Assembly (NCBI GenBank): GCA_963811325.1
Contig: CAWEQT010000001.1
Location: 1,301,859 to 1,365,858 of the forward strand
Direction: 5' to 3'
Origin: an uncultured delta proteobacterium
GTDB lineage: Bacteria; Desulfobacterota; Syntrophia; Syntrophales; Smithellaceae
Length of the DNA: 64,000 nucleotides
Both the position numbers and the translations under genes were made by a program. A model generated the notes under the pieces. That model had not been told where the DNA came from and searched no databases. It saw only the letters and a program-made list of their open reading frames with translations. Positions 649 through 63,407 of this stretch are shown piece by piece (within the stretch, counting starts at the first letter, position 1; each line of letters opens with the position of its first letter).

Positions 649-671
649 AAAATATTTTCTAATTTTCCTTT

Positions 672-7554: not shown

Positions 7555-7630
7555 TGGTAGGCGGAACAGGGATCGAACCTGTGACATCCACGGTGTAAGC
7601 GTGGCGCTCTCCCAGCTGAGCTACCCGCCC
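7555..7630 (-). tRNA. tRNA-Val(TAC)
   Basis: GGGCGGGTAGCTCAGCTGGGAGAGC CCACG-CTTACAC-CGTGG...GGTTCGATCC...CCA. Confidence 0.97.
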
Positions 7631-13383: not shown

Positions 13384-13471
13384 TGGTGCGAGAGAGGGGA
13401 CTTGAACCCCTATTCCGCATATGCGGGCTGGATCCTAAGTCCAGTGCGTCTGCCAATTCCGCCACTCTCGC
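13384..13471 (-). tRNA. tRNA-Leu(TAG)
   Basis: GCGAGAGTGGCGGAATTGGCAGACGC CTGGA-CTTAGGA-TCCAG, long variable arm, GGTTCAAGTCCC, CCA end. Confidence 0.97.
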
Positions 13472-31333: not shown

Positions 31334-31368
31334 TGAATCTTGAACATTGCCCCTTTAGCCTTGAACCT
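31334..31368 (+). repeat. Phased heptamer array A
   Basis: TGAATCT TGAACAT TGCCCCT TTAGCCT TGAACCT, then degenerate units. Confidence 0.85.
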
Positions 31369-33721: not shown

Positions 33722-33770
33722 CTTTCCTTTATCCTTGCTCCTTGAACCTTTAGCCTTTAACCTTGAGCAT
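33722..33770 (+). repeat. Phased heptamer array B
   Basis: CTTTCCT TTATCCT TGCTCCT TGAACCT TTAGCCT TTAACCT TGAGCAT, ending 9 nt before the ATG at 33780. Confidence 0.88.
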
Positions 33771-41258: not shown

Positions 41259-42152
41259 TTGATTAAGAACAATTACGTCTTAATAACAGCAGCACGTAAT
41301 GAAGAAAAGTATATAGAAAATACTATAAAGACGATTATCTCGCAAACTGTTTTACCGGTTAAGTGGATGATTGTCAGTGATGGTTCAACTGATAGAACGG
41401 AAGAAATAGTTTCACAATATGTAGCACAGTACAACTTTATAACGCTTGTTCATAAAACAGCAAACACAAACGTACAAGTTGATTTTGCTTCCAAGGTTCA
41501 TGCAATCATGATAGGATACAAAATGCTTGCCGGTACTGATTATGACTTTATTGGCATACTCGATGGCGATGTCACCTTTGATTCTTTTTACTATGAAAAT
41601 ATTTTAAATAAATTTGCCGAAAATTCTAAGTTGGGCATTGCGGGGGGAATTATCCTTGATCAATACGATGATCATTATATAAGAAGATCGCCAAGTAATT
41701 CAAATTATGTTTCCGGCTGCATTCAACTTTTTCACCGGGCGTGTTACGAAGAGATAGGTGGCCTACTCCCCATCAAAGAAGGCGGGGAAGACACAATTGC
41801 CGCCATAACAGCTCAGATGAAGGGATGGGTGGTAGAAGCCTTTGAAGAACTTAAGGTGTATCACCACAAACTCAGCAAAACCACGCGGGGTAAATTAAAA
41901 GAAGCCTTCAGAGCAGGCCGAATGTTTTACGCGCTGGGTAGCCATCCGTTATTTGAGATATTTAAATGTATCAAAAGCCTCACCACCAAACCTTACTTAT
42001 TGTTTGCTATGACAAGGATGTGTGGTTATCTTCTGCCGTTTTTCAAGAAACAAAGACGACCTGTAACGGAAGAATTTATTCAATTTTTGAGAAAAGAGCA
42101 ACTTTCCAAATTAAAACAAATTTTATCCAAAGAGAGTGAAGGTCATGCTTAA
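41259..42152 (+). CDS. GT2 glycosyltransferase
   Basis: LITAARNEE, VSDGSTD, LDGD, GGEDT. Confidence 0.9.
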   Translation: MIKNNYVLITAARNEEKYIENTIKTIISQTVLPVKWMIVSDGSTDRTEEIVSQYVAQYNFITLVHKTANTNVQVDFASKVHAIMIGYKMLAGTDYDFIGILDGDVTFDSFYYENILNKFAENSKLGIAGGIILDQYDDHYIRRSPSNSNYVSGCIQLFHRACYEEIGGLLPIKEGGEDTIAAITAQMKGWVVEAFEELKVYHHKLSKTTRGKLKEAFRAGRMFYALGSHPLFEIFKCIKSLTTKPYLLFAMTRMCGYLLPFFKKQRRPVTEEFIQFLRKEQLSKLKQILSKESEGHA

Positions 42153-43602
42153 GCACAACAAGATATTGTTTATACCATTGGTGCTGTTGTTAATGCTGGG
42201 CTATTCAACCACAATCTTTTCCGCCACTTACTATATAGATTATGCCAGCGGGTCAGATGCCAACAATGGAACGTCGATCACACAACCATGGAAACGCTGC
42301 CCGGGGATGAAAGGTTTTTCCGGCAGCTATTCCCATTCAGCAGGAGATGTATTCGTCTTCAAAGGCGGAGTAATCTGGCCTGTGGCAGCTTTGCGATTAA
42401 CAATTGCCAAAAGTGGGGCTAACGGCAATCCTGATATTTACATAGGTGGACAAAGGTGTGACGTATCAGGTTTGGCGTCGTGTAATGGAGGAACTGCATG
42501 GGGTAGTGATTATCCGATATTTGATGGCGGGGCTGTTAATGGGATGCTTGCTATCTATAGTTCCGGTAAATCACATATTACGATTGACGGAATAAAAATA
42601 GTCAATGTTGGATATACCGATGGAAGTGGACAGGCGATCGCATTTAGTGGCGGGTCAGGTATAACAGTCAAAAACTGCTGGCTTCAGCCAAACGGTGTCA
42701 ACGCCTTTGCTTACGGCGCATCATCGGGAACGTACTCCAAGGTTTACTTCCATGACAATATTATCAAGCAAGCCGGCAGGGTTCATGTGAGTGTGGGTGA
42801 TGCGACCTGTGATGATTTCCAGTTTTATAATAATACAATGTATGGCAGCTATGATTATGATCGGAAGTCTTATCATACGGATGGTTTCATGATTGGGGCA
42901 GATGGAGTCGGTACATGGAAAGCCACCAATCTCAAAATATACAACAACAAGTTTGTGGGGGATTGGACACATGGCGCAACAGCGTTTATCTATATTAATG
43001 GAACACCAAAGACCTATTATGGATGGAAGTATGTCTATATCTATAATAATCAGTTAACATCTGAGAATGCCACGGGATGCACACTATCACCTGCCGCTAT
43101 ATTTTTTGCCGGTGGGCATAGCGATGTAAAGGTCTATAATAACACCATTGATGCAAGATCAAGTTCAGGAACTCCAACAAGTCATTGTATAGCTTTCGCA
43201 TGGCGGATTAACAACATAGAGGTTAAAAATAACATATTAACAGGATGTGATAATGGCATCACAATCGGCTCGGATACCACTGGAACAGTTGACCTTGATT
43301 ATAACCTTTATTACACACTAAGTAATAATCATCTGATATGGGATAGTAGATCTGCTGTGAACAAAAGATGTAATACGCTTTCCGGCTGTCAAGGTTCACC
43401 TGTTTATCAGGAAGCACATGGTAAAGTAGGCGAACCGAGGTTTATGGCATTACCGCATGGCGGAGTTGCTGGATCGGGTGATTGGCATTTACAGGCCGGT
43501 TCACCAGCGAGAACCGGCGGCGTTAATCTTGGCATACCTTATACAAGTGATATCGAAGGTGTAGTCGGAGGGAACAGGATTGGCGCTTATGCAAGAAAAT
43601 AA
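42145..43602 (+). CDS. Secreted right-handed beta-helix protein, paralog 1 (no C-terminal anchor)
   Basis: Signal peptide, ATYYIDY..G.D.NNG...PWK, Asn/Gly-rich beta-helix repeats, C-terminal WHLQAGSPA...RIGAY. Confidence 0.75.
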   Translation: MLKHNKILFIPLVLLLMLGYSTTIFSATYYIDYASGSDANNGTSITQPWKRCPGMKGFSGSYSHSAGDVFVFKGGVIWPVAALRLTIAKSGANGNPDIYIGGQRCDVSGLASCNGGTAWGSDYPIFDGGAVNGMLAIYSSGKSHITIDGIKIVNVGYTDGSGQAIAFSGGSGITVKNCWLQPNGVNAFAYGASSGTYSKVYFHDNIIKQAGRVHVSVGDATCDDFQFYNNTMYGSYDYDRKSYHTDGFMIGADGVGTWKATNLKIYNNKFVGDWTHGATAFIYINGTPKTYYGWKYVYIYNNQLTSENATGCTLSPAAIFFAGGHSDVKVYNNTIDARSSSGTPTSHCIAFAWRINNIEVKNNILTGCDNGITIGSDTTGTVDLDYNLYYTLSNNHLIWDSRSAVNKRCNTLSGCQGSPVYQEAHGKVGEPRFMALPHGGVAGSGDWHLQAGSPARTGGVNLGIPYTSDIEGVVGGNRIGAYARK

Positions 43603-48963: not shown

Positions 48964-49602
48964 ATGCTGCTGATAAAATCCCTCAATAAAATATTATATA
49001 GGCTGTATGCCTTAAACAACAGGCGATTGCGTGATATCATTCAAAGTATTATAAGTAATAATGAAGGTGGCGCTGTCCGCTCAAAAACCTTAAGAAAGAT
49101 TTTTCATGACTATCATGATATCACAATCGGGATGTACAGCTATGGCGGCTGCTTCGATTTACACAACATCCCTGCAGGAACGGTGATTGGAAGATATTGC
49201 TCATTTGCACGTAATGTATACATCTTATCCGGCAATCATCCGTTTACCAATAAATCAATGCATCCTTTTTTCTATAGTCCCTATTTCGGTTATGTTGACG
49301 AATTATCAATCACCAGAACAAAGTTGGTCATCGAAAATGATATCTGGATAGGGCAAAACGCGATCATATTGCCGTCTGTCAATAGGATCGAAAATGGCGC
49401 AGTAATAGCTGCGGGTGCTGTTGTTTCTAAAAATGTGCCGCCATTTGCTATCGTGGCAGGTAATCCGGCAAAAATTATTAAATACCGCTTTTCTCAGCAG
49501 GTTATTGACCAAATAACGCAATCAGCCTGGTGGGAAAAGGACATTAATGAAATTAAAGAGAATCATGATGAGTTTAAAAGTTTTTTAAAACCAATTGAAT
49601 AA
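48964..49602 (+). CDS. CatB/Vat-related O-acetyltransferase
   Basis: IGRYCSFA, IENDIWIG, IAAGAVVSKNVPPFAIVAGNPAKIIKYRF, AWW. Confidence 0.88.
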   Translation: MLLIKSLNKILYRLYALNNRRLRDIIQSIISNNEGGAVRSKTLRKIFHDYHDITIGMYSYGGCFDLHNIPAGTVIGRYCSFARNVYILSGNHPFTNKSMHPFFYSPYFGYVDELSITRTKLVIENDIWIGQNAIILPSVNRIENGAVIAAGAVVSKNVPPFAIVAGNPAKIIKYRFSQQVIDQITQSAWWEKDINEIKENHDEFKSFLKPIE

Positions 49603-49824
49603 CTCAAAAAAATATCTTTATCGTTTTGTCCCCCGCTTGCTGGGGTGGCAAGTTTTTCTAAAACTATAAAAAAACGCATAACAGCTTGCGGCCAAAATTC
49701 AAACATGGCAATTGCCATTTGAAAGATTCAATAAACAATATTCACTTTTATAAAAGAATTAAATTGCTGATAGGGATGATAGTAATCAGGATAAAACTCA
49801 GAAATTAGATTGAATCATATAGTC

Positions 49825-49865
49825 AAAACAAAAGGCAGCGTCGAATTAGCCCTGCCTTTTGTTTT
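49825..49865. terminator. Bidirectional terminator between the EPS operon and the convergent gene
   Basis: AAAACAAAAGGCAG-loop-CTGCCTTTTGTTTT. Confidence 0.8.
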
Positions 49866-50029
49866 TCTTGAGGAAAGGGTTTTTGACTTGGACCAAATTG
49901 GCCTTGGTATAAGGCAGATACGTTATAAAAAAGGATGCTTTCTCAGTGGCCAATAATAATAGGGGCCAGAGTTGAAAATTACTCTACCCTCTATTGTTAT
50001 TCTGTTTTCTTGCAACTATTAAAGTACTT

Positions 50030-52012
50030 TTACAAAAGTCTGTCTCTGTCCGCTCTGAAAGTAAGTGCCGCTAATTGCGCGTGTGCATGCTTTTCCATTT
50101 TCTTTCTGATGATGATGACCATAATCATTAGAAGCATGGTTAGCAGCAGCATCTCTGCAGCGTTTGGATAAGACATAGCGTAAACGATAGGTGTTAATGC
50201 CCATCTTGTTGCTATTTTTAAAAAGTCATTTGCTGCAATGACTTTTGCAACAGGTGGTGAATTTCTGTAATAAAATTCCACAAACTTTTTGCCAAAGTAA
50301 TTGGTCAAAAGATAATGATCGCGGAAGTTTCTCAATATATATACATGCGGATCGAGATAAGAACCATAGGCAGCCGTGGCAATGAAGCATCCGCCCTTAC
50401 CATTACCGCCATCATCATCAGTACCACTGTCTGCCGCAAAATCATACGCGCCCACATCCCACGGAGTTTGACGGGTATTATATAAATAATCAGTAGTGAA
50501 TGTCCCAGAAAGATTATTTCCCATGTTGATAGCAGGAGAATTAGATTGTAATTGCCAGTTTCCCGACCCTGTAACACCACCACTTGGTAAAGCAACGAAA
50601 CCTATATACGAACCGGAATAAGCAGTATTTGCTTTGCCTTGCGTTTCCTGTCCCTGTGCTTGACAAGCAGCAAGAGTATTACACCTGTTTTGTCCCGGTC
50701 TTTCATCGTATATTAGATGATCACCGTAAACCGTGTTATAGATATTATAATCAATGGTAATTGTTCCGATTGAGGATGCTGATATTATAATAGCATTGTC
50801 CGTTCCAGAGAGAATATTATTTTCAACCGTGGCACTCCCTATCACACTATCCAAGAATATCCCGGTAAACGCAACGGCCGGATTAGAGGCACAGTTATCG
50901 CCTGAAATAGTATTATTAAAAATATTGATATTTTCCTTATTGCCGTTGTATATTGATATCGCGCCAGGACAAAAGGCTTCAGAAGTACAAGTATTACTTT
51001 CGGGGGCTATAACATTGTCATATATCCATGCTCCATTTACACTATTATATCCAGGTGTGCCGTTCACATAAATGGCTGCTGTTCCTGTCATGTTTCCTCT
51101 AAACATATTATGATGGATATAAAGATTAGTCATCCAGGTATTATTAGCAGGAGTAGTATTCGCCCCGACCATAAAACCATCTGCATGATAAGTCTGAGGA
51201 TTGTAAGTTCCTAGGCCGAGAAAGATATTATTATATAATTGAATATCATCCATATAAAAAGTAAGATCAGTAGTGTTAATAACTACCCTACCCGAATTTT
51301 CTATGAGATTATCGTGAAAGAGTAGATGGGCAGTATTATATCCAATGCCGTGGCTAAAAGCATTGACAGCATTTGTGTTGAGTATGTTATTCTTCACCTC
51401 CAGGCTTGAAGTAGTCCCAGCAGCTATTCCCTGTCCTGACCCGTCCGTATATCCTGCGTTATCTATCTCAATACCGTCTATGGTCACATAGGACAATCCG
51501 TTTTTAATAGATATCACTAATGCCCCATCAACAGCTCCACCATCAAAATGTGGATAACCTGTTCCCCATGCTACTCCGCCATTGCAGGAGACAGAAGCGT
51601 TTGAGCCGCAAGGATAGTTTATTCCGTTACAGGCAGAAGTACCGTTAAGAAGAAATGGCGAGGGTGGGGTATAGCCGCATTGCTGACCACCCATGTAAAC
51701 ATCAGTAGCTCCATTTGCACCGGAGTTTTTTATTGATAATACAGTACTGTATCCAGATTGCATAGGCCATGTCACTCCGCCTTTGAAGACAAAGACATCA
51801 CCAGCGGAGTGAGAATATGTACCCGTAAATCCGGGCATTTCAGGTGCAAATTTCCACGGCGTTGAAGTGGTTGTCCCATTATTGGAATCCAAACCGTTGA
51901 CATAGTCTATGTAGTACGTAGCGGCTATTGCTATTTTAGAAGATAAAAATATGAACAGACACGTTACAAAAATTACTCCTATTTGATTTAATATTCTGCT
52001 TCTTTTTATCAT
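50030..52012 (-). CDS. Secreted beta-helix protein, paralog 2, with CFI-box-CTERM sorting domain
   Basis: Signal peptide, shared N-cap, linker [10 protein letters not shown], then [10 protein letters not shown]...LRNFRD...[10 protein letters not shown] helix and RKK. Confidence 0.82.
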
Positions 52013-52022
52013 ACTACCTCCA
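51669..52022. repeat. 354-bp near-identical duplication of 55195-55548
   Basis: Covers the SD, signal peptide and N-cap of paralogs 2 and 3, with long identical stretches. Confidence 0.9.
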
Positions 52023-52406
52023 TTTTTCTTAAATAACAAAGGCATCCATTGTTCTCTTACGCATACCATCCGGCGGTATGATCAACAAAAAAGAGCCTGT
52101 AAACTGATCTGTGCGAATAGAATAATTTCCATATAAATGCTAAAATGTGTTGGTGCATAACAGCAAATTTTGAAATTGTCAATGCCAGATTGGCTGAGGG
52201 ACTCGTCCATTTATTTATCATATCCTGAACGACAGGCAATAATGGTTATGCCATAAAACAATGGTTGATAATTTGTGGACAACAGTAATAAGTGATTGTT
52301 AAAATATCTTGGGAGCCATTAAAAGTGTAAACTATGTATCCGTTCTAAAATGTGAACGCTGTTTCAGTTGCACAGTGGATGTATTAATGTAGCCGTAATT
52401 TTCATC

Positions 52407-52431
52407 GTAGGGCGAGTTTTCCAAACACGCC
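52407..52431 (+). repeat. GTAG-type REP-like palindrome
   Basis: GTAG-GGCGAGTTT-TCC-AAACACGCC. Confidence 0.5.
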
Positions 52432-52642
52432 GCTTAGGACTTCGAACTGCTTGGGGAACGGAGTCTGCCCGTCGGCCGGAGGGTGACACCTCTCTTAAAA
52501 TCTCTCGACTTCGCGCCAGTGGAGGATATGAAATGACATTTTTCCTATTGCGAAACAGCCTCCAAGTCCGGAATGATGAATAGCAGAGTTGTGCAGGTCT
52601 CTACTTGCCCAGTCCCCCAATAACATCGGGTGCTGAAGCAGC

Positions 52643-52685
52643 GAAAGGACTTCTTCCCTGTGTCAGTTCAGGAAGAAGTCCTTTC
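52643..52685. repeat. 15-bp perfect inverted repeat after the paralog 3 stop codon
   Basis: GAAAGGACTTCTTCC-N13-GGAAGAAGTCCTTTC. Confidence 0.75.
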
Positions 52686-52688
52686 TAT

Positions 52689-55535
52689 TTACCTGCGTTT
52701 TTTCGAATACAACATAGATCTGGCAAAAGTTGCTGCAACAGATTTTGCTACGGTCATAGTTACGGTGCAAGTGCCTGTACCGGAGCATCCTCCACCTGAC
52801 CAACCGGACAAGGTGGATTCACTATTCGCCAAAGCGGTCAAGGCCACTGATTTCCCAGACTCATAATTTACTGAGCAGGTCGAGCCGCAATTGATGAGGC
52901 CATCACTGCCGGTAACAGTCCCTGTTCCCGTACCAGATTTTGTAACGGTTAAGTTATATGTAGTTATGGCAAAAGTTGCAGTAACTGATGTCGCTGCGGT
53001 CATAGATACAGTGCAAGTGCCTGTACCGGAGCATCCTCCTCCTAACCAACCGGTAAAAGTATATCCGCTAGTTGCTGAAGCGGTCAAGGTCTCTGATGTT
53101 CCCAGATCATAATTTGCTGAACAGGTCGAGCCGCAATTGATAGTACTATCACTGCTGGTGATAGTCCCCGCTCCCGTAACAGATTTTGTAACGGTTAAGT
53201 TGTATACAGGTATAAAAGTTGCTGCAACAGATGTCGCTGCGGTCATGGTTACGGTGCAAGTTCCTGTACCGGAACATCCACCTCCTGACCAACCAGAAAA
53301 AATAGATCCGTTATTCGCCAAAGCAGTCAAGGTCACTGATTTTCCAGACTCATAATTTACTGAACAGGTCGAGCCGCAATTGATGAGGCCATCACTGCCG
53401 GTGACAGTCCCAACTCCAGTACCAGATTTTGTAACGGTTAAGTTGTTTGTAGTTATGGCATAATTTGCTGTAACAGGTGTCGCTGCTGTCATGGTTACGG
53501 TGCAAATCCCTGTACCGGCGCATCCTCCTCCTGACCAGCCAGTAAACGTATATCCGTTATTGGCCGAAGCGGTTAAGGTCACAGATGTTTCTGGAGCATA
53601 ATTTGCGGAGCAGGTTGAGCCGCAATTGATGCCTGATGGATTGCTTGTCACTATACCATTAGCTGATATAATTAATAGAGCGTATTGAGTTTTGCCACCC
53701 AGGTCTGCCTCATAATTATAAGCACCCATTCCCCATGTTGAGATTGTTTCATTAAGATAATCAGTCGTGAAAAGTGATGAGAGATTAACGCCAACATCTT
53801 TAGCTGGGGAAGATGATTGCAACTGCCAGTTTCCCGTATTGTCACCTGTAGGAATAGTTACAAAACCTATGTATTTACTGGAATAAGCAGATGAATTATT
53901 GATTCCGTGAGCTTCATATCCTGCGTTTTGACAAGCGGCAAGAGTATTGTATCTGTTCGATGTCCTATTGTCCCATATTAAATGTTCACTTAAAGCCGTA
54001 TTATAGATGTCGTAATCGGCCACTATTGTGCCTGAACAGGTAGCCGTCATTATAATCGAATTATCAGTGGCAGAGAAGATATTGTTTTCAATCGTTGCAT
54101 CATTTACCTGTTCTAAATAAATTCCCGTTGGAGGGTTAGCGATACAGGCATCCATAGCTATCGTGTTGTTATAAATGCTGATATTCTCGAACTGTCCACT
54201 TTGGGCTGCTATCGCAGCAGGAGAAAAGGGTATGCCATAGATACAAGTTTCGGGAGCTATAACATTATCGTATATTAACGCACCGTTTATACTGTTGAAA
54301 TAATAAGTGGTGGGGGTCGTTGAAGACATGGTTACTTCTATTGTTCCCCCTGCGGAAGGAGTAAAACTCCCATTATATGTTTGTTCTTGTATTATTTCCC
54401 CTGGTATAAAAGACGCATGAGCTATAGTATTAAGAATAAGCGTTGTGCTTGTTACCTGTTGAATTTCTCCATACGCCCCCGATGTCAATCCTAACGCCCA
54501 ATAAGTCTCTCTCGAAGCTGTAAATCCTGCTGTTATCGGATTGGATGTCGGGGTAACAATTTTAGCACTTGCACCGTTCATGTAAATAGCCGCTGATGCC
54601 CCCCAATCACCTCTGAAGATGTTATGGTGGATTTTAACATTAGTCATCCAGTTTCCGGTATTTTGAAAAGTATTAGTTCCAATCATAATGCCGTCTGTAT
54701 GATAACTATGATTATTATAAGTACCTCTTCCCATGAAGATATTATTGTAAATTTGAGTATCATCGGAATAGGATACATTGTCGGATTGATTAATGACGAC
54801 ACGACCTGAATTTTCTATGAGATTATCGTAAAAACATAAGTGGGCTGTGTATCCGCCGTTTACAGTACTATTCCCAATATTATGATTAAAGGCATCTACA
54901 GCATTAGTATTTAAGACACAATTTTTCACTTCTAAACTGGATGTTGAATTGCCGTTTATTCCAAAACCAGTCCCATCGGTATAACCGACATTATAAACTC
55001 TTATTCCATCTATTGTTATGTAAGATAGACCGGCAGACATATTTATTCCGTAGCCAGCAGAAATAGAATTGTTAGAAGTAAATGTCGGATAACCTATCCC
55101 CCAAGGAGAACCGTCATTGCAGGAGACAGAAGCGTTTGAGCCGCAAGCCTGAGTTTGCGAATCCGACGAACACCGCACAAAAGGCGTTGCAGGAGTATAG
55201 CCGCATTGCTGACCACCCATGTAAACATCAGGAGTTCCATTTGCGCCGGAGTTTTTTATTGATAATACAGTACTGTATCCAGATTGCATAGGCCATGTCA
55301 CTCCGCCTTTGAAGACAAAGACATCACCGGCGGAGTGAGAATATGTACCCGTAAATCCGGGCATTTCAGGTGCAAATTTCCACGGCGTTGAAGTGGTTGT
55401 CCCGTTATTGGAATCCAAACCTTTAACATAATCTATGTAGTACGTATCTGCTATTGCTATTTTAGAAGATAAAAATATGAGCAGGCAGGTTACAAAAAAT
55501 ACTCCTATTTGATTTAAATTTCTGTCTCTTTTCAT
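52689..55535 (-). CDS. Secreted beta-helix protein, paralog 3, with four C-terminal InlB B-repeat-like domains
   Basis: Shared N-cap; four repeats of LTVTKSGTG.GTVT.SDG.INCGSTCS.NY..G.SV.LTA.A..G..F.GWSGGGCSGTGTCTVTMT. Confidence 0.82.
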   Translation of the reverse strand: MKRDRNLNQIGVFFVTCLLIFLSSKIAIADTYYIDYVKGLDSNNGTTTSTPWKFAPEMPGFTGTYSHSAGDVFVFKGGVTWPMQSGYSTVLSIKNSGANGTPDVYMGGQQCGYTPATPFVRCSSDSQTQACGSNASVSCNDGSPWGIGYPTFTSNNSISAGYGINMSAGLSYITIDGIRVYNVGYTDGTGFGINGNSTSSLEVKNCVLNTNAVDAFNHNIGNSTVNGGYTAHLCFYDNLIENSGRVVINQSDNVSYSDDTQIYNNIFMGRGTYNNHSYHTDGIMIGTNTFQNTGNWMTNVKIHHNIFRGDWGASAAIYMNGASAKIVTPTSNPITAGFTASRETYWALGLTSGAYGEIQQVTSTTLILNTIAHASFIPGEIIQEQTYNGSFTPSAGGTIEVTMSSTTPTTYYFNSINGALIYDNVIAPETCIYGIPFSPAAIAAQSGQFENISIYNNTIAMDACIANPPTGIYLEQVNDATIENNIFSATDNSIIMTATCSGTIVADYDIYNTALSEHLIWDNRTSNRYNTLAACQNAGYEAHGINNSSAYSSKYIGFVTIPTGDNTGNWQLQSSSPAKDVGVNLSSLFTTDYLNETISTWGMGAYNYEADLGGKTQYALLIISANGIVTSNPSGINCGSTCSANYAPETSVTLTASANNGYTFTGWSGGGCAGTGICTVTMTAATPVTANYAITTNNLTVTKSGTGVGTVTGSDGLINCGSTCSVNYESGKSVTLTALANNGSIFSGWSGGGCSGTGTCTVTMTAATSVAATFIPVYNLTVTKSVTGAGTITSSDSTINCGSTCSANYDLGTSETLTASATSGYTFTGWLGGGCSGTGTCTVSMTAATSVTATFAITTYNLTVTKSGTGTGTVTGSDGLINCGSTCSVNYESGKSVALTALANSESTLSGWSGGGCSGTGTCTVTMTVAKSVAATFARSMLYSKKRR

Positions 55536-55593
55536 GTTACTACCTCCATTTTATCTGTTTTGTTCTTCAGAATTGTTGGAGGGCTCTGAATTT

Positions 55594-55683
55594 GCCCGGT
55601 AGTTCAGCCACCTTATCCCCCTATGAAGACTTAGGTCTGTAACTTTGCGTCCCACCTTTTCAGATGGTTTGCCTTTTTCAAGC
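55594..55683 (-). ncRNA. c-di-GMP-I riboswitch aptamer, copy 3 (gene-proximal)
   Basis: P1 GCUUG/CGGGC, GGCAAACC, P2 with GAAA tetraloop, GGGACGCAAAG, P3 with CCUAA...UAAGG receptor. Confidence 0.9.
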
Positions 55684-55759
55684 TTTGGTTGTTATTACAC
55701 GCTCTTTTAAAATTTGTTATTTTGTATTGGCAGGATTGCTGGACGGATCTTTTCATGTT

Positions 55760-55849
55760 GCCCGGCAGTTCTGCCACCTTATCCACTTACGAAGACTTAG
55801 GTCAGTAACTTTGCGCCCCACCTTTTCAGATGGTTTGCCTTTTTCAAGC
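55760..55849 (-). ncRNA. c-di-GMP-I riboswitch aptamer, copy 2
   Basis: Same fold, 166 bp upstream; compensatory change in P3 relative to copy 3. Confidence 0.9.
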
Positions 55850-55925
55850 TTTGGTTGTTATTACACGCTCTTTTAAAATTTGTTATTTTGTATTGGCAGG
55901 ATTGCTGGACGGATCTTTTGATGTT

Positions 55926-56015
55926 GCCCGGCAGTTCTGCCACCTTATCCACTTACGAAGACTTAGGTCAGTAACTTTGCGCCCCACCTTTTCAAGTGGT
56001 TTGCCTTTTTCAAGC
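55926..56015 (-). ncRNA. c-di-GMP-I riboswitch aptamer, copy 1
   Basis: Same fold, a further 166 bp upstream; P2 variant CCACUU-GAAA-AGGUGG keeps pairing. Confidence 0.9.
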
Positions 56016-56030
56016 TTCTTGGTTAAATAA

Positions 56031-56046
56031 TGCAATAATTATTCCA
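56031..56046 (-). promoter_or_regulatory. Putative sigma54 promoter feeding the riboswitch array
   Basis: TGGAAT-AATTA-TTGCA; predicted +1 falls a few nt 5' of aptamer copy 1. Confidence 0.6.
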
Positions 56047-56157
56047 TAAAACAACATAATTAAATAGTGTATAATATCATTATCTTACACATAAATGTCG
56101 CTGTCGACTTTCTCAAAATATGGTCATTTTGCCCGTTTTGTAGGTTAAATTCACAAA

Positions 56158-56185
56158 AAGAACAAGGTTCAAGGGGCAAGGTTCA
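56158..56185 (-). repeat. Phased heptamer array D
   Basis: Minus strand TGAACCT TGCCCCT TGAACCT TGTTCTT. Confidence 0.8.
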
Positions 56186-56204
56186 AAAAAAGAATCCAAG
56201 CCAT

Positions 56205-56221
56205 TGTCGGAATACTTTACA
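56205..56221. promoter_or_regulatory. 17-bp enhancer box
   Basis: TGTCGGAATACTTTACA (reverse complement TGTAAAGTATTCCGACA, identical to the box at 16541), 128 nt from the -24 of PEP-CTERM gene 3. Confidence 0.8.
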
Positions 56222-56349
56222 AATATGAAAAAAGTTTTTTTATTACCCAAGCCAACACAAACAAAGAGAATGCTTTTTATAATTATTAATCGTGTATTAT
56301 CTAATATTTATAGCTATATCTGACCCCACAAAGTTATAGTTACCATTTC

Positions 56350-56365
56350 TGGCATAACAATTGCA
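56350..56365 (+). promoter_or_regulatory. sigma54 promoter of PEP-CTERM gene 3
   Basis: TGGCAT-AACAA-TTGCA. Confidence 0.85.
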
Positions 56366-56430
56366 AAATTATAATCGAAAGAAAGAAGGGGAAAATAAAA
56401 AAATAGTAAAATAAAGAAAAGGGGATTTTT

Positions 56431-57066
56431 ATGAAAATAAAATTAATTACGTTTTTTTTCACGGTTGTAATGCTTTGTGCATTCAGCACAGCAACAATGG
56501 CTCTTACTATTCCGTACAATGGTGAGGAGGTTTATATAACCCATGCCGGTTACCCTGGTAACGTTGGCGGGGGAATCTTTATGGTGCAGTCAGACCCGGG
56601 ACACAACAATCTTTTCGAAACATTTTGTACCGAACTTGGTGTTGTACTTCAATATCCTCCTTATATTGTGGAGCTTGGTACATCTTCCCTACCTTCTGGT
56701 ATCCCACTAACTCCCCAAGAAGCTTATTTATATTATAGTTTTAGAGCGGGAACTCTACCATTTTATGTTAACAATAACACTGATGCTGATGCCCTTCAGT
56801 TTGCATTCTGGATTCTTGAAGGTCAAATAAAGGGCGTTCCATCACCTGACGTTCCATTATTCGGAGCACAGACAGACGCTTACCTTGCATTCGCAAACTC
56901 TACAACATGGACTACTACCGGTGATGTTGGTGTTATGAATCTTATAAACACGCAGGGCCAATATACGCAAGCCATGTTGGCCTTGGTTCCTGAACCGCTG
57001 ACGATATTATTGCTTGGTTTTGGTCTCCTCGGTCTGGGAATTACCAGAAGAAAGTTAAAGAAATAA
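56431..57066 (+). CDS. PEP-CTERM surface protein 3 with thioester-domain-like motifs
   Basis: Signal peptide; FCTE, LQFAFWILE, TQAML; LVPEPLTILLLGFGLLGLGITRRKLKK. Confidence 0.93.
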   Translation: MKIKLITFFFTVVMLCAFSTATMALTIPYNGEEVYITHAGYPGNVGGGIFMVQSDPGHNNLFETFCTELGVVLQYPPYIVELGTSSLPSGIPLTPQEAYLYYSFRAGTLPFYVNNNTDADALQFAFWILEGQIKGVPSPDVPLFGAQTDAYLAFANSTTWTTTGDVGVMNLINTQGQYTQAMLALVPEPLTILLLGFGLLGLGITRRKLKK

Positions 57067-57085
57067 GTTAGCTATCAATAATTTG

Positions 57086-57120
57086 AAAAAAACCAGCAGT
57101 TTAAACGCTGCTGGTTTTTT
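57086..57120 (+). terminator. Terminator of PEP-CTERM gene 3
   Basis: AAAAAAACCAGCAG-TTTAAACG-CTGCTGGTTTTTT. Confidence 0.85.
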
Positions 57121-57363
57121 ATTGTGAAACTCCAATTCTAATGAAACTCAGATATTACATATTACAAATGCAGTGCAGTAATATCTGTAAGTTGTAATAA
57201 GGTTTAGACTTCAAAAGCAAAGCGCATTGAAGTTTTTTAGCCGAATTATCCAAAAGCCAAAGGCTATTGGAAACAATTCGGCAAAGCGGAAGGTACATAC
57301 CCCGCAGCTTGCTTTGGGGGTGATACCCGTGATTGTCTTGATTTCTTTGATAAAAATTGCAGG

Positions 57364-57380
57364 TGTCGGAATACTTAACA
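57364..57380. promoter_or_regulatory. 17-bp enhancer box (no linked sigma54 promoter found)
   Basis: TGTCGGAATACTTAACA. Confidence 0.65.
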
Positions 57381-57473
57381 ACTTTTTTTACACATTATTT
57401 ACGTTTAATTATTTGTTATTGTTAGCTAAATACGAATAAATTGCCTATTGGATGTGATTTGCCTGGCTTGATA

Positions 57474-57490
57474 CGTCGGAATAGTTTACA
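57474..57490. promoter_or_regulatory. 17-bp enhancer box (no linked sigma54 promoter found)
   Basis: CGTCGGAATAGTTTACA. Confidence 0.65.
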
Positions 57491-57500
57491 GATTTGAAAA

Positions 57501-57535
57501 AGATTCAAGGGGCAAGCAACAAGGTTTAAGGCAAT
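57501..57535 (-). repeat. Phased heptamer array E, overlapping the ATPase stop codon
   Basis: Plus strand AGATTCA AGGGGCA AGCAACA AGGTTTA AGGCAAT. Confidence 0.75.
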
Positions 57536-58746
57536 TGGGCAAGCCACTGCCAGGCCGGCGAGATCAAAATTTTATGTGTTCCATTGGGTATAATCCGATA
57601 ACCATTGCCAGCCTCAATTAGCAAAACGGCGGGCACACCCAATCTGTTTTGAAATGCCAAAAGAGGTTTTGCAGGCTGTGAATCGGATAATTTTGCCTCA
57701 ATAAGCAGAAAAGGTTCGCCGCTGTTAGCAATCAAAAAATCAACCTCCCTCTTCTCTTTATCCCTTATGAAATGAAGAGAAAAGACGCCTGATCCCATGT
57801 CGTTCCATATGGTTACTGCTCGCAATAACTCACAGGCCACCATGTTTTCGAAACGTGTAGCAGGATCCTTGATCCTCGGGTAGTCATAAAGATAGCATTT
57901 CCGTTCTTTCTGAATAGCCCGGGCAACTTTGCCCGTCCAAGTTGGAATACTGAATGTCAGATAAAATCTTTCCAGAATATCAAGCCAGCTCCGCACAGTA
58001 TTGTAAGAAACCTTCAAGTTTTCCGCAAGTGAAGTCACGGAAAGCGGGCTGCCAATTTTTGACGGTAGAAGTGTATAAATTGTTTCTATATCCTGCACGG
58101 ATTTGATATCTGTTAAATCACGGATGTCTTCTCTGACTAGTTGCCGCGTATAGGTGTTAGTCCAACGCCGGTAAGTGGTCTCACGACCGGAAAGGTAAGG
58201 CTCGGGAAATCCGGATAAAATGGCAAGCTGTTGCCAGATGACCTTCAGACGTTCACTTTTCTTCATATTCAAATGCAAGGGGTCGCTCATGAACTCTTCA
58301 AAAGGCCTGTTCATGCCGCCCAGTTCTGCAATGGTAAAAGGAAAAAGATGAAAAAGATAATACCTGCCTGCCAGTGAATCACCGCCTTTCTGATAGATGT
58401 CAAGGCGTCCACTGCCGGAAATGAGAAATTTGAATTCGTCACTAAATTCATCATAAATGCCCTTCAGATAATTTTTCCAGTCTTTGTATTTATGAAGTTC
58501 ATCAAAAATGATCAGGGGCACGGAATTGTCTTTCCTGACAAGATGTGAAAAAAATCCAGGATCCTGAAGAAGATGCGTGCGGTTATTCGTTATATCCCAG
58601 TTCCAATAAAGACTATTGCTAAAAGATTCGGCAATAATCTTTGTAAGTGTCGTCTTACCTGACTGGCGGGGACCGGCCAAAAAAATCATCGCTTTGTCAT
58701 GAGACAATTCTTTCCACACACTAATATAAGGGGTTCGCTTTTTCAT
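57526..58746 (-). CDS. AAA+ ATPase with DUF4143 / PD-(D/E)xK-like C-terminus (COG1373 type)
   Basis: GPRQSGKTT, IIFDELH, SGS, SLAGR, GFPEPYL, RKCYLYD, FENMVACEL, EVDFLI...IEAK. Confidence 0.9.
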   Translation of the reverse strand: MKKRTPYISVWKELSHDKAMIFLAGPRQSGKTTLTKIIAESFSNSLYWNWDITNNRTHLLQDPGFFSHLVRKDNSVPLIIFDELHKYKDWKNYLKGIYDEFSDEFKFLISGSGRLDIYQKGGDSLAGRYYLFHLFPFTIAELGGMNRPFEEFMSDPLHLNMKKSERLKVIWQQLAILSGFPEPYLSGRETTYRRWTNTYTRQLVREDIRDLTDIKSVQDIETIYTLLPSKIGSPLSVTSLAENLKVSYNTVRSWLDILERFYLTFSIPTWTGKVARAIQKERKCYLYDYPRIKDPATRFENMVACELLRAVTIWNDMGSGVFSLHFIRDKEKREVDFLIANSGEPFLLIEAKLSDSQPAKPLLAFQNRLGVPAVLLIEAGNGYRIIPNGTHKILISPAWQWLAQLP

Positions 58747-58752
58747 ATGGCT

Positions 58753-58792
58753 ATTATTCAGTTAATTGAAAAATAGTCAAGACTATTTTTCA
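58753..58792 (-). promoter_or_regulatory. sigma70-like promoter with overlapping 12-bp perfect palindrome, probably leaderless
   Basis: TTGACT-N16-AATAAT ends 6 nt before the ATG; TGAAAAATAGTC-AA-GACTATTTTTCA at 58767-58792. Confidence 0.55.
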
Positions 58793-58817
58793 GTGAGCAT
58801 AAAAAAGGACGAGGAAC

Positions 58818-58866
58818 AGGGGCAAGGACAAAGGATAAAGGTTCAAGGATAAAGGATAAAGGAGAA
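58818..58866 (-). repeat. Phased heptamer array F
   Basis: Plus strand AGGGGCA AGGACAA AGGATAA AGGTTCA AGGATAA AGGATAA AGGAGAA. Confidence 0.9.
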
Positions 58867-58936
58867 AAGAAAATTCCATTAAAAAAGTGCTCGCTTTTTT
58901 CTATCTAATATATTAAATAATTACAATATCCTAAAG

Positions 58937-59821
58937 GTGAATATGAGCGAAAATTCTCTGGCTGAAAAAATCAAGGAACATCTTAACACTAGAAATATTG
59001 TTTTTCTTCTTTTTGCGGTTTTGGCATTGATCATGGCTTATACGTCGATCAAAGCGCTTTATTTCTCAAATAAAAGCGAATATTATTCGCATATCGCGCT
59101 TATTCCTCTGGTGAGCATTTATCTGATTTACATCAACCGCGAAGAAATTTTTGCAAAAGTAAATTATTTATTTGCTGTGGGAATTCTCGTTTTGCTTCTG
59201 GGCATAGCTCTGTTTCTGGGCGGAATTTTATGGGGTGCGCCGCTGGATCAAAACAATTACGCGTCTCTTATCGCCTTTTCTATCTTCATTTTCATAAACG
59301 GAGCTTTTATTCTTCTTTACGGTATGCAGGCTTACCGAAGCGCTTTGTTCCCTCTTCTCTTTTTGATTTTTATCGTTCCTATCCCCACGGTTCTCATGGA
59401 TAATATCATCCATTTTTTACAGGTCGGTTCCACGGAGTTTGTAAATCTGTTATTTCTGGCCTCGGGAACGCCGTTTATAAGAGATGGCTTTGTCTTTCAA
59501 TTACCAAATGTCAGTGTCGAAGTGGCTAAACAATGCAGTGGCATCCGGTCAGGCATGGCTATTTTTATTGTCGCCATTTTGGCCGGTTATATGTTTCTGA
59601 ACTCCTACTGGAAAATAATTTTTCTTACTATCTGCGCAGTATTGATCGCCATGTTAAAAAATGGTATCCGGATTTTTACGCTCTCATTATTAGGAAATTA
59701 TGTTGATCCGCGAATTCTTGCAAGCTCTCTGCACAGAGAAGGCGGCATACCTTTTTTTATTGTGGCGCTGCTGTTGTTGGCTCCAATACTGTTTTTTTTA
59801 AGAAGATCAGAAAAGAAGTAA
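58937..59821 (+). CDS. xrtA: Exosortase (XrtA type, no fused EpsI domain)
   Basis: 8 TM segments, YYSHIALIP, catalytic Cys VAKQCSGIRS, Arg NGIRI, His LHREGG. Confidence 0.9.
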   Translation: MNMSENSLAEKIKEHLNTRNIVFLLFAVLALIMAYTSIKALYFSNKSEYYSHIALIPLVSIYLIYINREEIFAKVNYLFAVGILVLLLGIALFLGGILWGAPLDQNNYASLIAFSIFIFINGAFILLYGMQAYRSALFPLLFLIFIVPIPTVLMDNIIHFLQVGSTEFVNLLFLASGTPFIRDGFVFQLPNVSVEVAKQCSGIRSGMAIFIVAILAGYMFLNSYWKIIFLTICAVLIAMLKNGIRIFTLSLLGNYVDPRILASSLHREGGIPFFIVALLLLAPILFFLRRSEKK

Positions 59822-59914
59822 TATGATTTACTGATAGCGGATGGCCGGTTTTCGATTTACAGTTAACAATTAAAGTTAATAGTTAAACGGAAAAAAAGAT
59901 GTTACAGATGAATC

Positions 59915-62032
59915 ATGCCTTTTAATGTTGATCTTTCATTTGCGGCGGCGGGCGTTACTATTGCAGTGATTGTCATCGGCATTTACCGCGGGCCGCGTTC
60001 TTTTGTTCAGGGTATATTTGCCTTCGGCATGGTGCTTCTGTCTCTGGAGGCTGCACTCACTGGTCTTGTTTATCAGTCAAACTCACTTTCGGGATTCCTT
60101 TTCTGGCAGCGGTTGCGGTTTATTGTAGCCTCTCTTGTACCGGCTGCCTGGCTGTTCTTCAGCATCAGCTTTGCCCGCGCTAATTATTCCGAACAAATAT
60201 CTAAATGGAAGTGGGTTTTGCTGCTGGCAGTTGTTGCGCCGCTTTCCCTGATTACTATTTTTAATAATGACTTTATTTCTTTAGTTCTGGCGCCGCAAAA
60301 TTCGTCAACTCTGTTTATCCGGATAGGATGGTCCGGCTATCTATGGCACATAATCTCTATTATACTATCCATAGCCATTCTCATGAATCTGGAAAGAACT
60401 TTCCGTCATTCTACCGGGCACATTCGCTGGCAGACCAAATTCATGTTTCTGGGTATAGGCAGTATTTTTGGAATACGGCTTTTTACGGACAGTCAGGTTG
60501 TCCTCTTCAACGGCGTGGATACAGGTCTTTATTTAGTTGATCTGGGCGCTCTTCTGATAGCCGACTTTTTTATTTTCCGGTCGCTATTTCGCGGCAAGCC
60601 GCTGAATGTCAGCATTCAGCTTTCACACCAGTTTCTCTATACTTCCTTCACTATCCTGATTGTTGGCGCATATTTTATATCACTGGGAATGATTGCCTGG
60701 GTTTCGCTGCATTTCGAATGGCTCAGAAATATCAACCTGGCTATCTTCCTGACTTTTGTTGTAATAATTGGATTGGCCACTTTTCTGCTTTCCGATCGGC
60801 TGAGAACAAAACGAAAACGTTTCATCAGCCGGCATTTAAAGCGTCCGCAATACGATTATCAAAAAATATGGGAAGACTTCACCCAGAGAACTGCCTCTGT
60901 AACAAAAACTAACGAGTTATGTAATATTATCGTCAAGATGGTGTCGGATACACTGGGGATTCTTTCCGTCAGCATCTGGCTTGTTGACGAAAAGCAGGAA
61001 CAATTATCTTTTGGCGGGTCAACGGTGTTTACCGCAGATCAGATCGAAGAAATGAACTTTTTCAAAGAAGGAGGAAAGGAGCTGATCCGCGCCATGATTA
61101 ATCAAAAAATGCCGCTTGATTTGAAAGGGCGAGAAGATGACTGGGTTTCTGATCTGGCCCATACCTATAAATTGGAAACCAAGGAATCACGCATCCGCTA
61201 CTGCGTTCCTCTTAATGCCGCCGGACAGCTAATTGGAATAATGACCTTAAGCGAAAAAGTATTTTATGAATCGCTTACCTTTGAAGAATCGGAACTGATT
61301 AAAACTATTTCCGATCAGGCCGCGGCCGCTTTATTGGGCCTGAGACTTTCCGAACGTCTGCGTCAGACAAAGGAACTGGAGGCATTTCAGACCATGTCTG
61401 CTTTTTTTATGCACGATTTGAAAAATCTGGCATCAAAACTGTCTCTGGTGACGCAAAATCTGCCCCTGCATATGGATAACCCGGAGTTCCGCACAGATGC
61501 GCTGAAAACTATTTCTCAGAGTGTATCCAAAATTAACAAGATGAGCAGCCGCCTTTCTCTCTTAAGCCAGAAAATTGATCTTTCCTTTCGCGAAACAAAT
61601 ATAAATGACCTGATAACCGCAACTATCTCCGATTTGAAAGAATATGTAAAGGTTCCGGTATCTCAGAATTTCGATCGGAACATGCCTCTGCTTCCCATAG
61701 ATCAGGAACAAATGCACAAAGTACTTGAAAATCTGCTCATGAATGCATACGATGCGATGGGAAATGATGGCCAAATTTCTGTTGCTACAATTTTTCAGGA
61801 TAACTGGGTGGAAATTTCCGTAAGCGATACCGGCTGCGGAATTTCTAAAGAATTTTTGGAGAAAAATATTTTCCGTCCTTTTCAGACAACAAAAAAGCAG
61901 GGGATGGGCATTGGCCTTTATCATTGTAAAACTATTGTAGATGCACATGGCGGTAAACTTTACGTGGAAAGCGAGGAAGGCAAGGGAACTGTATTCAAAA
62001 TACTGCTGCCGCCTGGCAGAAACCGTGAATGA
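59915..62032 (+). CDS. prsK: PEP-CTERM system histidine kinase PrsK
   Basis: N-terminal TM block, LERTFRHS, GAF domain, H-box FMHDLKN, NLLMNA, DTGCG, FQTTKKQGMGIGLY. Confidence 0.92.
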   Translation: MPFNVDLSFAAAGVTIAVIVIGIYRGPRSFVQGIFAFGMVLLSLEAALTGLVYQSNSLSGFLFWQRLRFIVASLVPAAWLFFSISFARANYSEQISKWKWVLLLAVVAPLSLITIFNNDFISLVLAPQNSSTLFIRIGWSGYLWHIISIILSIAILMNLERTFRHSTGHIRWQTKFMFLGIGSIFGIRLFTDSQVVLFNGVDTGLYLVDLGALLIADFFIFRSLFRGKPLNVSIQLSHQFLYTSFTILIVGAYFISLGMIAWVSLHFEWLRNINLAIFLTFVVIIGLATFLLSDRLRTKRKRFISRHLKRPQYDYQKIWEDFTQRTASVTKTNELCNIIVKMVSDTLGILSVSIWLVDEKQEQLSFGGSTVFTADQIEEMNFFKEGGKELIRAMINQKMPLDLKGREDDWVSDLAHTYKLETKESRIRYCVPLNAAGQLIGIMTLSEKVFYESLTFEESELIKTISDQAAAALLGLRLSERLRQTKELEAFQTMSAFFMHDLKNLASKLSLVTQNLPLHMDNPEFRTDALKTISQSVSKINKMSSRLSLLSQKIDLSFRETNINDLITATISDLKEYVKVPVSQNFDRNMPLLPIDQEQMHKVLENLLMNAYDAMGNDGQISVATIFQDNWVEISVSDTGCGISKEFLEKNIFRPFQTTKKQGMGIGLYHCKTIVDAHGGKLYVESEEGKGTVFKILLPPGRNRE

Positions 62033-62054
62033 CTGGAAGTGACGAGGTATTATT

Positions 62055-63407
62055 TTGCGAAAACAAAAACTATTAATCGTTGACGATGATGAAGATCTGC
62101 GCACTCAGATGAAATGGGCGTTAACGGCGGACTATGATGTTTATCTGGCTGAAGACCGGCAAAGCGCCATCGCCATTATAAATAAAGAGCAGCCGGCTGT
62201 AGTCACCCTGGATCTGGGTCTGCCGCCAAATCCCGTAGGTGTTGAAGAAGGTTTCGCTATCCTCGACCATATCCTTGATAACTATAGCCACACAAAAGTT
62301 ATTATCATAACCGGGCGCGGTGAAAAAGAAAATGCCCTGCGCGCTGTCGAAAAAGGCGCATACGACTTCTTTTACAAACCGATTGAATTAGACGAGCTGA
62401 AAGTTGTGTTGCGGCGAGCATTCCATGTTTCTCAACTGGAGAAGGAACAACGTGAGTTGCGGCATCGTTTAAGCGGCGACACTTTTGAAGACATGATTGG
62501 AACTTCCCAAAAAATGCAGGATGTCTTTTCCACCATTCGCAAAGTGGCAACAACTGACGCACCTGTTTTAATAAGGGGCGAAAGCGGTACCGGCAAAGAA
62601 CTGGTTGCCCGTGCCATTCACCGGCTGAGTATCCGCGAATCCAAGCCTTTTATTCCTATTAATTGCAGCGCCATTCCTGAAAATCTTATTGAAAGTGAAC
62701 TTTTTGGGCATGAGAAAGGAACATTCACTGGCGCGCATGCTCAGCGTAAAGGAAGATTTGAAATGGCTGAGGGAGGAACTCTTTTTCTTGATGAAGTTGG
62801 TGATCTTCCACTGACACTTCAAGTAAAACTTCTTCGTTTTCTTCAAGAAAAAATAATAGAACGTGTAGGAGGCAGAGAACAAATAGAGGTGGACACTCGA
62901 TTTTTGGCGGCTACCAATCGTGATCTTGAAGAAGCAATGAAAAATTCAACTTTCCGGGACGATTTATATTATCGTCTAAGCGTCATAAATATTTCTCTCC
63001 CGCCATTGAGGGAAAGAAATGTAGATGTCGTTATCTTGGCTAAAACTTTTCTGGATCGATATACAAGTGAAAATAGAAAAAAGATTAAAGGATTCACCCG
63101 TCAAGCTATCGAATCCATCGAACGCTACCCCTGGCCTGGAAATGTCCGAGAATTGGAGAACCGGATAAAACGAGCGGTAATTATGTCTGAGGGTAAAAAA
63201 ATTTCACCGAAAGACTTAGGAATGGAGTCAACTGTAGGCAAGGAAGAGTACATTGTGCTCAAAGATGCTCGCGAAATATTGGAAAAGGAGCTCATTTTAA
63301 AAGCCATAGCGCGAAATGAACAGAATCTAACTAAAGCAGCATCGGATCTTGGAGTCAGCCGTCCTACTTTATATGATTTAATGGAAAAATTAGGTATTCC
63401 AAGGTAA
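62055..63407 (+). CDS. prsR: PEP-CTERM-box sigma54 response regulator PrsR
   Basis: Receiver LDLGLPP, GESGTGKEL, ESELFGHEKGTFTGA, WPGNVRELEN, Fis-type HTH LGVSRPTLYDLM. Confidence 0.93.
   Translation: MRKQKLLIVDDDEDLRTQMKWALTADYDVYLAEDRQSAIAIINKEQPAVVTLDLGLPPNPVGVEEGFAILDHILDNYSHTKVIIITGRGEKENALRAVEKGAYDFFYKPIELDELKVVLRRAFHVSQLEKEQRELRHRLSGDTFEDMIGTSQKMQDVFSTIRKVATTDAPVLIRGESGTGKELVARAIHRLSIRESKPFIPINCSAIPENLIESELFGHEKGTFTGAHAQRKGRFEMAEGGTLFLDEVGDLPLTLQVKLLRFLQEKIIERVGGREQIEVDTRFLAATNRDLEEAMKNSTFRDDLYYRLSVINISLPPLRERNVDVVILAKTFLDRYTSENRKKIKGFTRQAIESIERYPWPGNVRELENRIKRAVIMSEGKKISPKDLGMESTVGKEEYIVLKDAREILEKELILKAIARNEQNLTKAASDLGVSRPTLYDLMEKLGIPR

Follow-up and report, generated by a model that had tools for sequence, protein, structure and literature searches.

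Why should one leader carry three copies of the same sensor, if a recognisable ribosome-binding-site switch accompanies only the last of them? This question is raised by a tandem array on the minus strand of the window (the whole stretch of DNA analysed here, 64,000 nucleotides from an uncultured bacterium), in the leader of a gene for a 948-aa secreted protein.

Three aptamers in one leader

A search with Rfam cmscan finds three complete matches to the c-di-GMP-I family (RF01051), all on the minus strand and with E-values of about 1e-13. Their scores are 76.0-77.9 bits, as compared to a gathering score of 35, and each of them covers model positions 1-87 of 87. No other c-di-GMP-I match in the window reaches the gathering score, and a permissive rescan of 49000-59000 adds no copy. 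Tandem Repeats Finder places a repeat at 55592-56017, with a period of 166, 2.6 copies and 96% matches; its unit, repeated with an exact 166-nt period, consists of a 90-nt aptamer (P1 counted) and a 76-nt spacer. Three aptamers of the same class hence lie within 422 nt of one strand, with no gene between them, bounded by a promoter-like site and a start codon, and 58 nt separate the end of the array from the ATG (55535) of the 948-aa ORF. The features of the leader and of its surroundings are the following.

56079..56107, minus strand: promoter-like TCGACA-17-GATAAT, the sole sigma-70-like match in 55300-56500, a consensus match only, in a region partly conserved in the relative L004
56027..56054, minus strand: alternative promoter candidate TTGTTT-16-CATTAT, read from the sequence, about 11 nt before aptamer 1
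55926..56015, minus strand: aptamer 1 (distal), including P1 GCUUG/CGGGC; RF01051 76.2 bits at 55927-56015, own model R1 113.2 bits
55850..55925, minus strand: spacer 1, 76 nt; S-element core GAUCCGUCCAGCAAUCCUGCC at 55895-55915; 3′ half A-rich and variable
55760..55849, minus strand: aptamer 2 (middle); RF01051 76.0 bits at 55761-55849, R1 114.9 bits
55684..55759, minus strand: spacer 2, 76 nt; S-element core at 55729-55749; one difference from spacer 1
55594..55683, minus strand: aptamer 3 (proximal); RF01051 77.9 bits at 55595-55683, R1 114.0 bits
55536..55593, minus strand: proximal expression platform, from sequence, folding and comparison
55585-55590 and 55566-55571, minus strand: platform hairpin arms UUCAGA and UCUGAA, from the sequence
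55581-55584, minus strand: GCCC, complementary to the P1 3′ strand GGGC and just 5′ of the anti-SD
55577-55582 and 55543-55548, minus strand: anti-SD CCUCCA and SD UGGAGG, complementary to each other
52689..55535, minus strand: regulated gene, 948-aa secreted protein, from its translation; Pfam Flg_new_2, E = 3e-29
50030-52069, minus strand: adjacent paralog, directly downstream, 66% identical over the aligned part; CFI-box-CTERM and choice-of-anchor Q matches
42136-43602: third paralog
56431-57066: PEP-CTERM protein gene, divergent from the regulated gene
58937-63407, plus strand: exosortase (EpsH family), 7TM-GAF histidine kinase and sigma-54 response regulator, beyond the PEP-CTERM gene
21385-49602, plus strand: polysaccharide biosynthesis cluster with glycosyltransferases, Wzy-like protein, flippase and FemAB-like acetyltransferases

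The first-pass annotation of this DNA had read the element as a triple-tandem c-di-GMP-I array in the leader of a paralogous secreted-protein gene, which the three full-length Rfam matches bear out; the coordinates it gave (55594-56015) and its 166-bp period agree with cmscan and Tandem Repeats Finder, the element running on the minus strand. P1, a GNRA-capped hairpin and a receptor-bearing hairpin can be read in the aptamer sequence, with their GAAA loop and CCUAAG / AUAAGG receptor-like motif. That three intact c-di-GMP-I aptamers stand here in tandem is therefore confirmed.

Could the copy number be an artefact of assembly, the repeat having been expanded or collapsed? Three further public contigs (L001, L002 and L003) encode a protein identical to the 948-aa one, and two of them end in or beside the array: L002 (1-311) begins inside a copy-1-type aptamer and runs straight into the proximal copy, showing two copies only, and L003 (1-45) begins 45 nt before the ATG. 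Breaks or a collapse at such a place are, however, what a 166-bp repeat is expected to cause in short-read contigs. L001, from an independent ENA assembly, has the identical leader, with three copies and all of their copy-specific variants; moreover, the three window copies can be told apart from one another and triples whose copies have diverged are found in eight other contigs. Given this identical leader and the recurrence of triples and doubles in metagenomes, we consider an artefact very improbable. It is likely, on the other hand, that tandem riboswitch copy numbers are under-counted in surveys based on MAGs, given that contigs end at the array.

The copies differ in ways that preserve their pairing, as the first-pass annotation had it. 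Aptamers 1 and 2 are distinguished by two adjacent changes in the GAAA-capped hairpin, CCACUU versus CCAUCU, each of which pairs with AGGUGG, the C-G and U.G pairs being swapped, and spacer 1 differs from spacer 2 by a single change. Between copies 2 and 3 there are seven aptamer changes, one of them a true compensatory flip from U-A to A-U in the receptor arm (ACUGACC..GGCAG in copy 2, ACAGACC..GGCUG in copy 3; i.e., CUG/CAG versus CAG/CUG). The inter-copy differences thus hold one genuine compensatory flip and one wobble-preserving swap. Aptamer 3 is marked by the variants GGGACGC, ACAGACC/GGCUG and ACUACC. The first of these is the Rfam consensus and is found in most proximal copies and in 35 of 46 singles, which have A at that position; GGGGCGC occurs in 24 of the 28 upstream aptamers of arrays, including those at 55926-56015 and 55760-55849 of the window.

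As for the ligand, the unpaired G directly 5′ of the G-C/C-G pairs of GGCAAA (alignment column 11) is G in all three copies, and by our own mapping onto Vc2 numbering we take it to be the equivalent of G20. With this placement, the claim that every copy has G at the specificity position holds, and G is likewise present in 92 of 93 distinct relatives. The equivalent of C92 (alignment column 85, likewise placed by our own alignment to Vc2) is C in 3/3 copies. With the ligand-contact roles of G20, A20 and C92 as described in PMC6140456, the ligand of all three aptamers is presumably c-di-GMP. A different case is met in another triple of the lineage (L029:26-439, minus strand), whose first aptamer has A at the G20 equivalent (GAAAAAAGCAAACC) and whose copies 2 and 3 have G; judging by these letters, it may be a mixed cGAMP/c-di-GMP array.

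The proximal switch and the spacers

A true anti-SD/SD pair is found in the window array at the proximal copy only. CCUCC pairs with GGAGG there in every predicted state, and across the platform variants at other loci the anti-SD:SD helix measures 5-10 bp, with flanks that covary (CCUCCA/UGGAGG; CCCUCCAA/UUGGAGGG; CCUCCUUUUU/AAAAAGGAGG; ACCUCCUU/AAGGAGGU). A layout of three elements such as this one (P1, GCCC and anti-SD) is usually that of a switch whose ligand shuts translation off. Since P1, stabilised by the ligand, would free the anti-SD, we lean, if only slightly, towards c-di-GMP acting as an OFF signal for translation. Equilibrium folding of the full leader gives an SD unpaired probability of 0.003 with the proximal aptamer bound versus 0.02-0.05 with it free, but the trend is reversed for the window leader when a wider window around the RBS is taken. 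When the proximal unit, the whole leader in its 8 occupancy states and 54 related leaders are folded under constraint, no consistent bound-versus-free trend in SD accessibility emerges, and GGGC/GCCC overlaps the anti-SD helix by 2 nt only. With results this inconsistent, folding does not establish the ON/OFF direction.

The upstream aptamers had been thought to lack an expression platform of their own, and on this point the comparison leads elsewhere. Each 76-nt spacer opens with an element of about 35 nt (the S-element, AAC-AUCAAAAGAUCCGUCCAGCAAUCCUGCC) that aligns to the proximal platform, CAACAUCAAAAGAUCCGUCCAGCAAUCCUGCC of the spacer being matched by CAAAUUCAGAG and CCCUCCAACAAUUCUGAAG of the platform at either side of a three-position gap. 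Its sequence hardly varies among 30 distinct upstream units of other loci, where the 3′ half of the spacer is A-rich and variable, and conservation is higher in these first 35 nt than in the aptamer loops. Many single aptamers are likewise followed by this element, which lies there 71-81 nt ahead of the SD and AUG of type IV pilus genes (e.g., a prepilin-peptidase gene at L062 and a pilin-like gene at L009). What the spacers open with is, therefore, a conserved element homologous both to the proximal platform and to single-copy pilus-gene leaders. Its position follows a rule, an S-type element being found in 31 of 34 upstream units and a CCUCC platform in 23 of 25 proximal ones, so that upstream units carry a conserved platform-derived element and no SD, and the proximal unit carries the anti-SD/SD pair. 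From this alignment, each upstream unit reads as a copy of a whole translational riboswitch, with the next aptamer placed where the SD and AUG were.

Array spacers are 71-81 nt long (mode 76) and contain 48% A, 22% C and 11% G. The earlier claim that they hold no terminator stands: no intrinsic terminator is found in them, nor anywhere in 55300-56500, and they contain no internal promoters. A start-stop mini-ORF (GUG UAA) considered in the spacer was rejected, its GUG not being conserved in other arrays.

Singles at L007, L010, L062, L069 and about 25 other loci have a strong TTGACT-17-TAAAAT promoter some 10 nt before them and use an S-type platform, in which GUCCA faces UGGA-type SDs. The TTGTTT-16-CATTAT site before aptamer 1 occupies the position of these clear promoters, which is what makes it a candidate.

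In the predicted ligand-free minimum free energy structure, a hairpin joins the 3′ strands of the aptamer to the S-element by GGCAG/CUGCC, UGC/GCA and GGGC/GUCC, with an inner AUC/GAU. No covariation was found in its outer helices, which are a thermodynamic prediction on a very conserved sequence, and the small inner hairpin, as read from the alignments, varies among singles in a pair-preserving manner (ACU/AGU, GACU/AGUC, ACG/CGU, GCU/AGC). An all-against-all column scan and RNAalifold on 52-59 units identify neither a covarying partner for the S-element nor covariation between units; the partner search returned short ambiguous helices only (GUGG/CUGC, CGGG/CCUG), a local GGUGG/CYGCC hairpin is all that RNAalifold supports on 52 distinct units, and RNAalifold on single-copy leaders through the start codon yields no consensus downstream structure.

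Relatives of the array and the possible role of its upstream units

A scan of a genome collection found one relative only, in a Syntrophaceae MAG (L004), where two aptamers with a period of 166 nt stand before the homologous gene, with the same proximal platform and a spacer about 95% identical to that of the window. Scanning metagenomes with a lineage-specific 24-mer gave 80 loci, in which a covariance model built from five aptamers identified 121 aptamers. Nine triples are known in this way, including the window; the other eight (L006, L029, L044 and its duplicate L065, L046, L068, L072 and L083) amount to seven distinct ones, and the periods are 160-171 nt. Besides these there are about 16 doubles and 62 singles, several of which run into the end of their contig, and the comparative set comprises 87 arrays. 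Across 99 distinct members of the lineage, in an alignment that was itself fitted to the model, 95.2% of cells of the aptamer fold are paired, as compared to 36-47% in slid controls, and 14 aptamer pairs have changed on both sides.

The genealogy of the copies is position-specific between loci: first copies cluster together, proximal copies cluster by platform type, and the closest relatives of aptamer 3 are proximal copies at other loci. Lineages of copies that are shared in this way by several loci imply that the arrangement is old. Copies 1 and 2 of the window, on the other hand, are each other's closest relatives (2 differences), and this near-identity, seen against the two copies of L004, makes the third copy of the window look like a recent 166-bp duplication of an upstream unit. 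The two are too alike for selection on the newest copy itself to be judged.

A different arrangement occurs at L024, L039, L040 and L057, where 237 nt separate the two aptamers of the tandem, the second of which belongs to a different sequence type, and a third aptamer lies about 500 nt away on the opposite strand, before a divergent gene. The proteins regulated there have FN3/InlB repeats and a CFI-box C-terminus.

What, then, could the upstream units be for? The best explanation as a whole, and in our opinion a probable one, is a three-aptamer leader with translational output, in which the upstream units act as added checkpoints. A leader of about 480-540 nt with three functional c-di-GMP-I aptamers would control the gene of the secreted beta-helix/InlB-repeat protein, with translation initiation as the presumed control point, where the anti-SD CCUCCA after the proximal aptamer could pair with the SD UGGAGG. 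In the upstream units the anti-SD half of this switch (CCGUCCAGCA..CUGCC) would have been kept under strong constraint, the place of the SD being taken by the next aptamer. Without ligand, the S-element is predicted to lock the 3′ strands of the aptamer in the long alternative hairpin; with ligand bound, it would be released on a spacer that is C-rich, G-poor and apparently unstructured. As the S-element is conserved and the spacer unstructured and richer in C than in G, we propose the released strand as the site where upstream units act. Each of them would most likely be a further ligand-dependent checkpoint on the same transcript, and the candidate routes are Rho-dependent termination, RNA turnover (RNase entry) at the spacer thus exposed, or an influence on the RBS or on how the next aptamer folds. 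If characterised tandems are a guide (PMC4759541, PMC9481103), the response could become steeper and threshold-like in this way.

A simpler possibility would be that only the proximal aptamer regulates, the upstream copies being by-products of duplication that serve at most as a c-di-GMP buffer (sponge) or a stabiliser of the leader. The upstream aptamers do lack both terminator and SD, the near-identity of window copies 1 and 2 makes the last duplication recent, and upstream occupancy shifts the predicted accessibility of the SD by no more than two-fold. By-products would not be expected, however, to keep full-model scores, with changes that preserve pairing, in many diverged loci, nor to form the position-specific lineages that make the arrays old; the first 35 nt of the spacer are also conserved beyond the aptamer loops, and the order S/S/SD is nearly invariant. 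As for a sponge, general reasoning suggests that a few copies of a leader per cell cannot appreciably buffer a second messenger. We therefore regard this possibility as unlikely. Somewhat less likely still, in our estimate, is that the whole leader is one switch with a single RBS, where the SD-less anti-SD strands that aptamers 1 and 2 release or capture meet at one SD or decide how the next aptamer folds, coupling the sensors as a relay or in AND/OR fashion. Such coupling is suggested by the UCCA that the S-element keeps, complementary to the UGGA of the SD, by its place before UGGA-type SDs in single-copy relatives, by the substitution in arrays of the next aptamer's GCUUGAAAAAGG for the SD region GAUUGGAAAU, and by the tightly held spacer length of 71-81 nt. 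Yet the complementarity to the proximal SD is of just 4 bp, with a conserved mismatch (CCGUCC versus CCCUCC), no long-range partner shows covariation, and folding of the SD depends little on upstream occupancy.

The checkpoint reading could also be taken further, to a new architecture in which ligand-gated anti-SD modules without an SD of their own are chained before one complete translational switch and act through the released strand (by a relay to the next aptamer or the single RBS, or by Rho or RNase entry) and not through terminators, this S-S-SD grammar being general in Syntrophaceae-like bacteria. In this full form we hold it to be doubtful. We know of no description of a translational S-S-SD grammar with SD-less upstream platforms.

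Known tandems and the setting of the locus

That triple arrays are rare, as the first-pass annotation stated, is true, but they are not new. An experimentally characterised triple-tandem c-di-GMP-I riboswitch is Bc3-5 of Bacillus thuringiensis CT-43 (Zhou et al. 2016, PMC4759541), a survey by Sherlock et al. (2022, PMC9481103) lists 12 triplets and 347 doublets of c-di-GMP-I, and triples recur in the lineage studied here. Bc3-5, like the window array, has three highly similar c-di-GMP-I aptamers in one 5′ UTR, there of a surface-protein operon, and as a triple exerts a more stringent, digital control than double or single forms (PMC4759541). Its aptamers, however, each have their own predicted terminator/antiterminator and form a transcriptional ON switch (PMC4759541), whereas the window array has no terminator, a last unit that sequesters the SD and SD-less upstream derivatives of a translational platform, in a Syntrophaceae-like host and not a Firmicute. 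A 2025 survey reports enrichment of tandem c-di-GMP riboswitches in Thermodesulfobacteriota (PMC12452182), which fits this source. The catalogued c-di-GMP-I tandems share with the window the class and the same-class tandem arrangement, which is read as pseudo-cooperative (PMC9481103, PMC12452182), and tandem riboswitches give sharper responses (PMC4759541, PMC9481103). In both surveys, nonetheless, c-di-GMP-I tandems count as arrangements with several complete expression platforms (PMC9481103, PMC12452182), whilst in the window a recognisable RBS switch is found on the last copy only. It is this that is less ordinary in what is otherwise an already described kind of array.

Two other systems offer partial parallels. 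Vc2 (tfoY, Vibrio cholerae) has the same P1, GAAA-capped P2, receptor-bearing P3 and G20/A47/C92 pocket, and no intrinsic terminator, but is a single aptamer. The tandem glycine riboswitch also places several aptamers for the same ligand before a single recognisable RBS-level platform; its aptamers, however, are joined by a short linker and dock with each other, whereas those of the window are 76 nt apart, on platform-derived spacers and with no known inter-aptamer contact. Spacers of this length would argue against a compact dimer of the glycine type.

The array alone leaves the knowledge of riboswitch classes unchanged. It does provide a clean natural triple c-di-GMP sensor outside the Firmicutes, in the exosortase/PEP-CTERM matrix locus of an uncultured anaerobe, and it ties a family of secreted beta-helix/InlB-repeat proteins to c-di-GMP. 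The set of 87 arrays, with its strict order of platform types, makes a tractable case for how translational tandem riboswitches combine their inputs, a matter which, to our knowledge, published work on tandem c-di-GMP riboswitches has not addressed.

With its divergent PEP-CTERM gene, the exosortase and regulators beyond it and the polysaccharide cluster, the locus is an exosortase/PEP-CTERM exopolysaccharide matrix locus, and control of matrix and surface proteins by c-di-GMP is expected biology. In the regulated protein, a signal peptide is combined with a beta-helix-like, repeat-rich N-terminal region and with four divergent InlB B-repeats; for its N-terminal 595 aa, a search of PDB sequences at E <= 1 gave no match, and neither Pfam nor NCBIfam gave a family. 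At other loci, this same leader stands before genes of the same protein family or of other secreted beta-helix/InlB/CFI-box proteins. Neither paralog in the window is preceded by a riboswitch (searched at E <= 5 in the region of the adjacent paralog and at the gathering score window-wide) or by leader-like sequence, and the roughly 670 nt between the regulated gene and the adjacent paralog hold no aptamer. The mechanical ORF start of this paralog is 52069, and alignment with the riboswitch-controlled paralog suggests a start at about 52009-52015 (minus strand).

Between the promoter region of the riboswitch and the divergent PEP-CTERM gene there is a direct repeat, AAGGTTCAA-GGGGC-AAGGTTCAA, at 56164-56186 (plus strand), of which none is expected by chance. 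Weaker copies lie at 31340-31362 and 33728-33750 (minus strand), with 26-mers of BLAST-level similarity near 15125, 16432, 16532 and 57475; the repeat may be the binding site of a regulator. Elsewhere in the window, Rfam identifies a pan motif (RF01749) at 667-737 (minus strand), with 44.8 bits versus a gathering score of 36.2, and three tRNA genes at 7436-7509, 7558-7630 and 13387-13471 (minus strand; Rfam tRNA, 58-71 bits).
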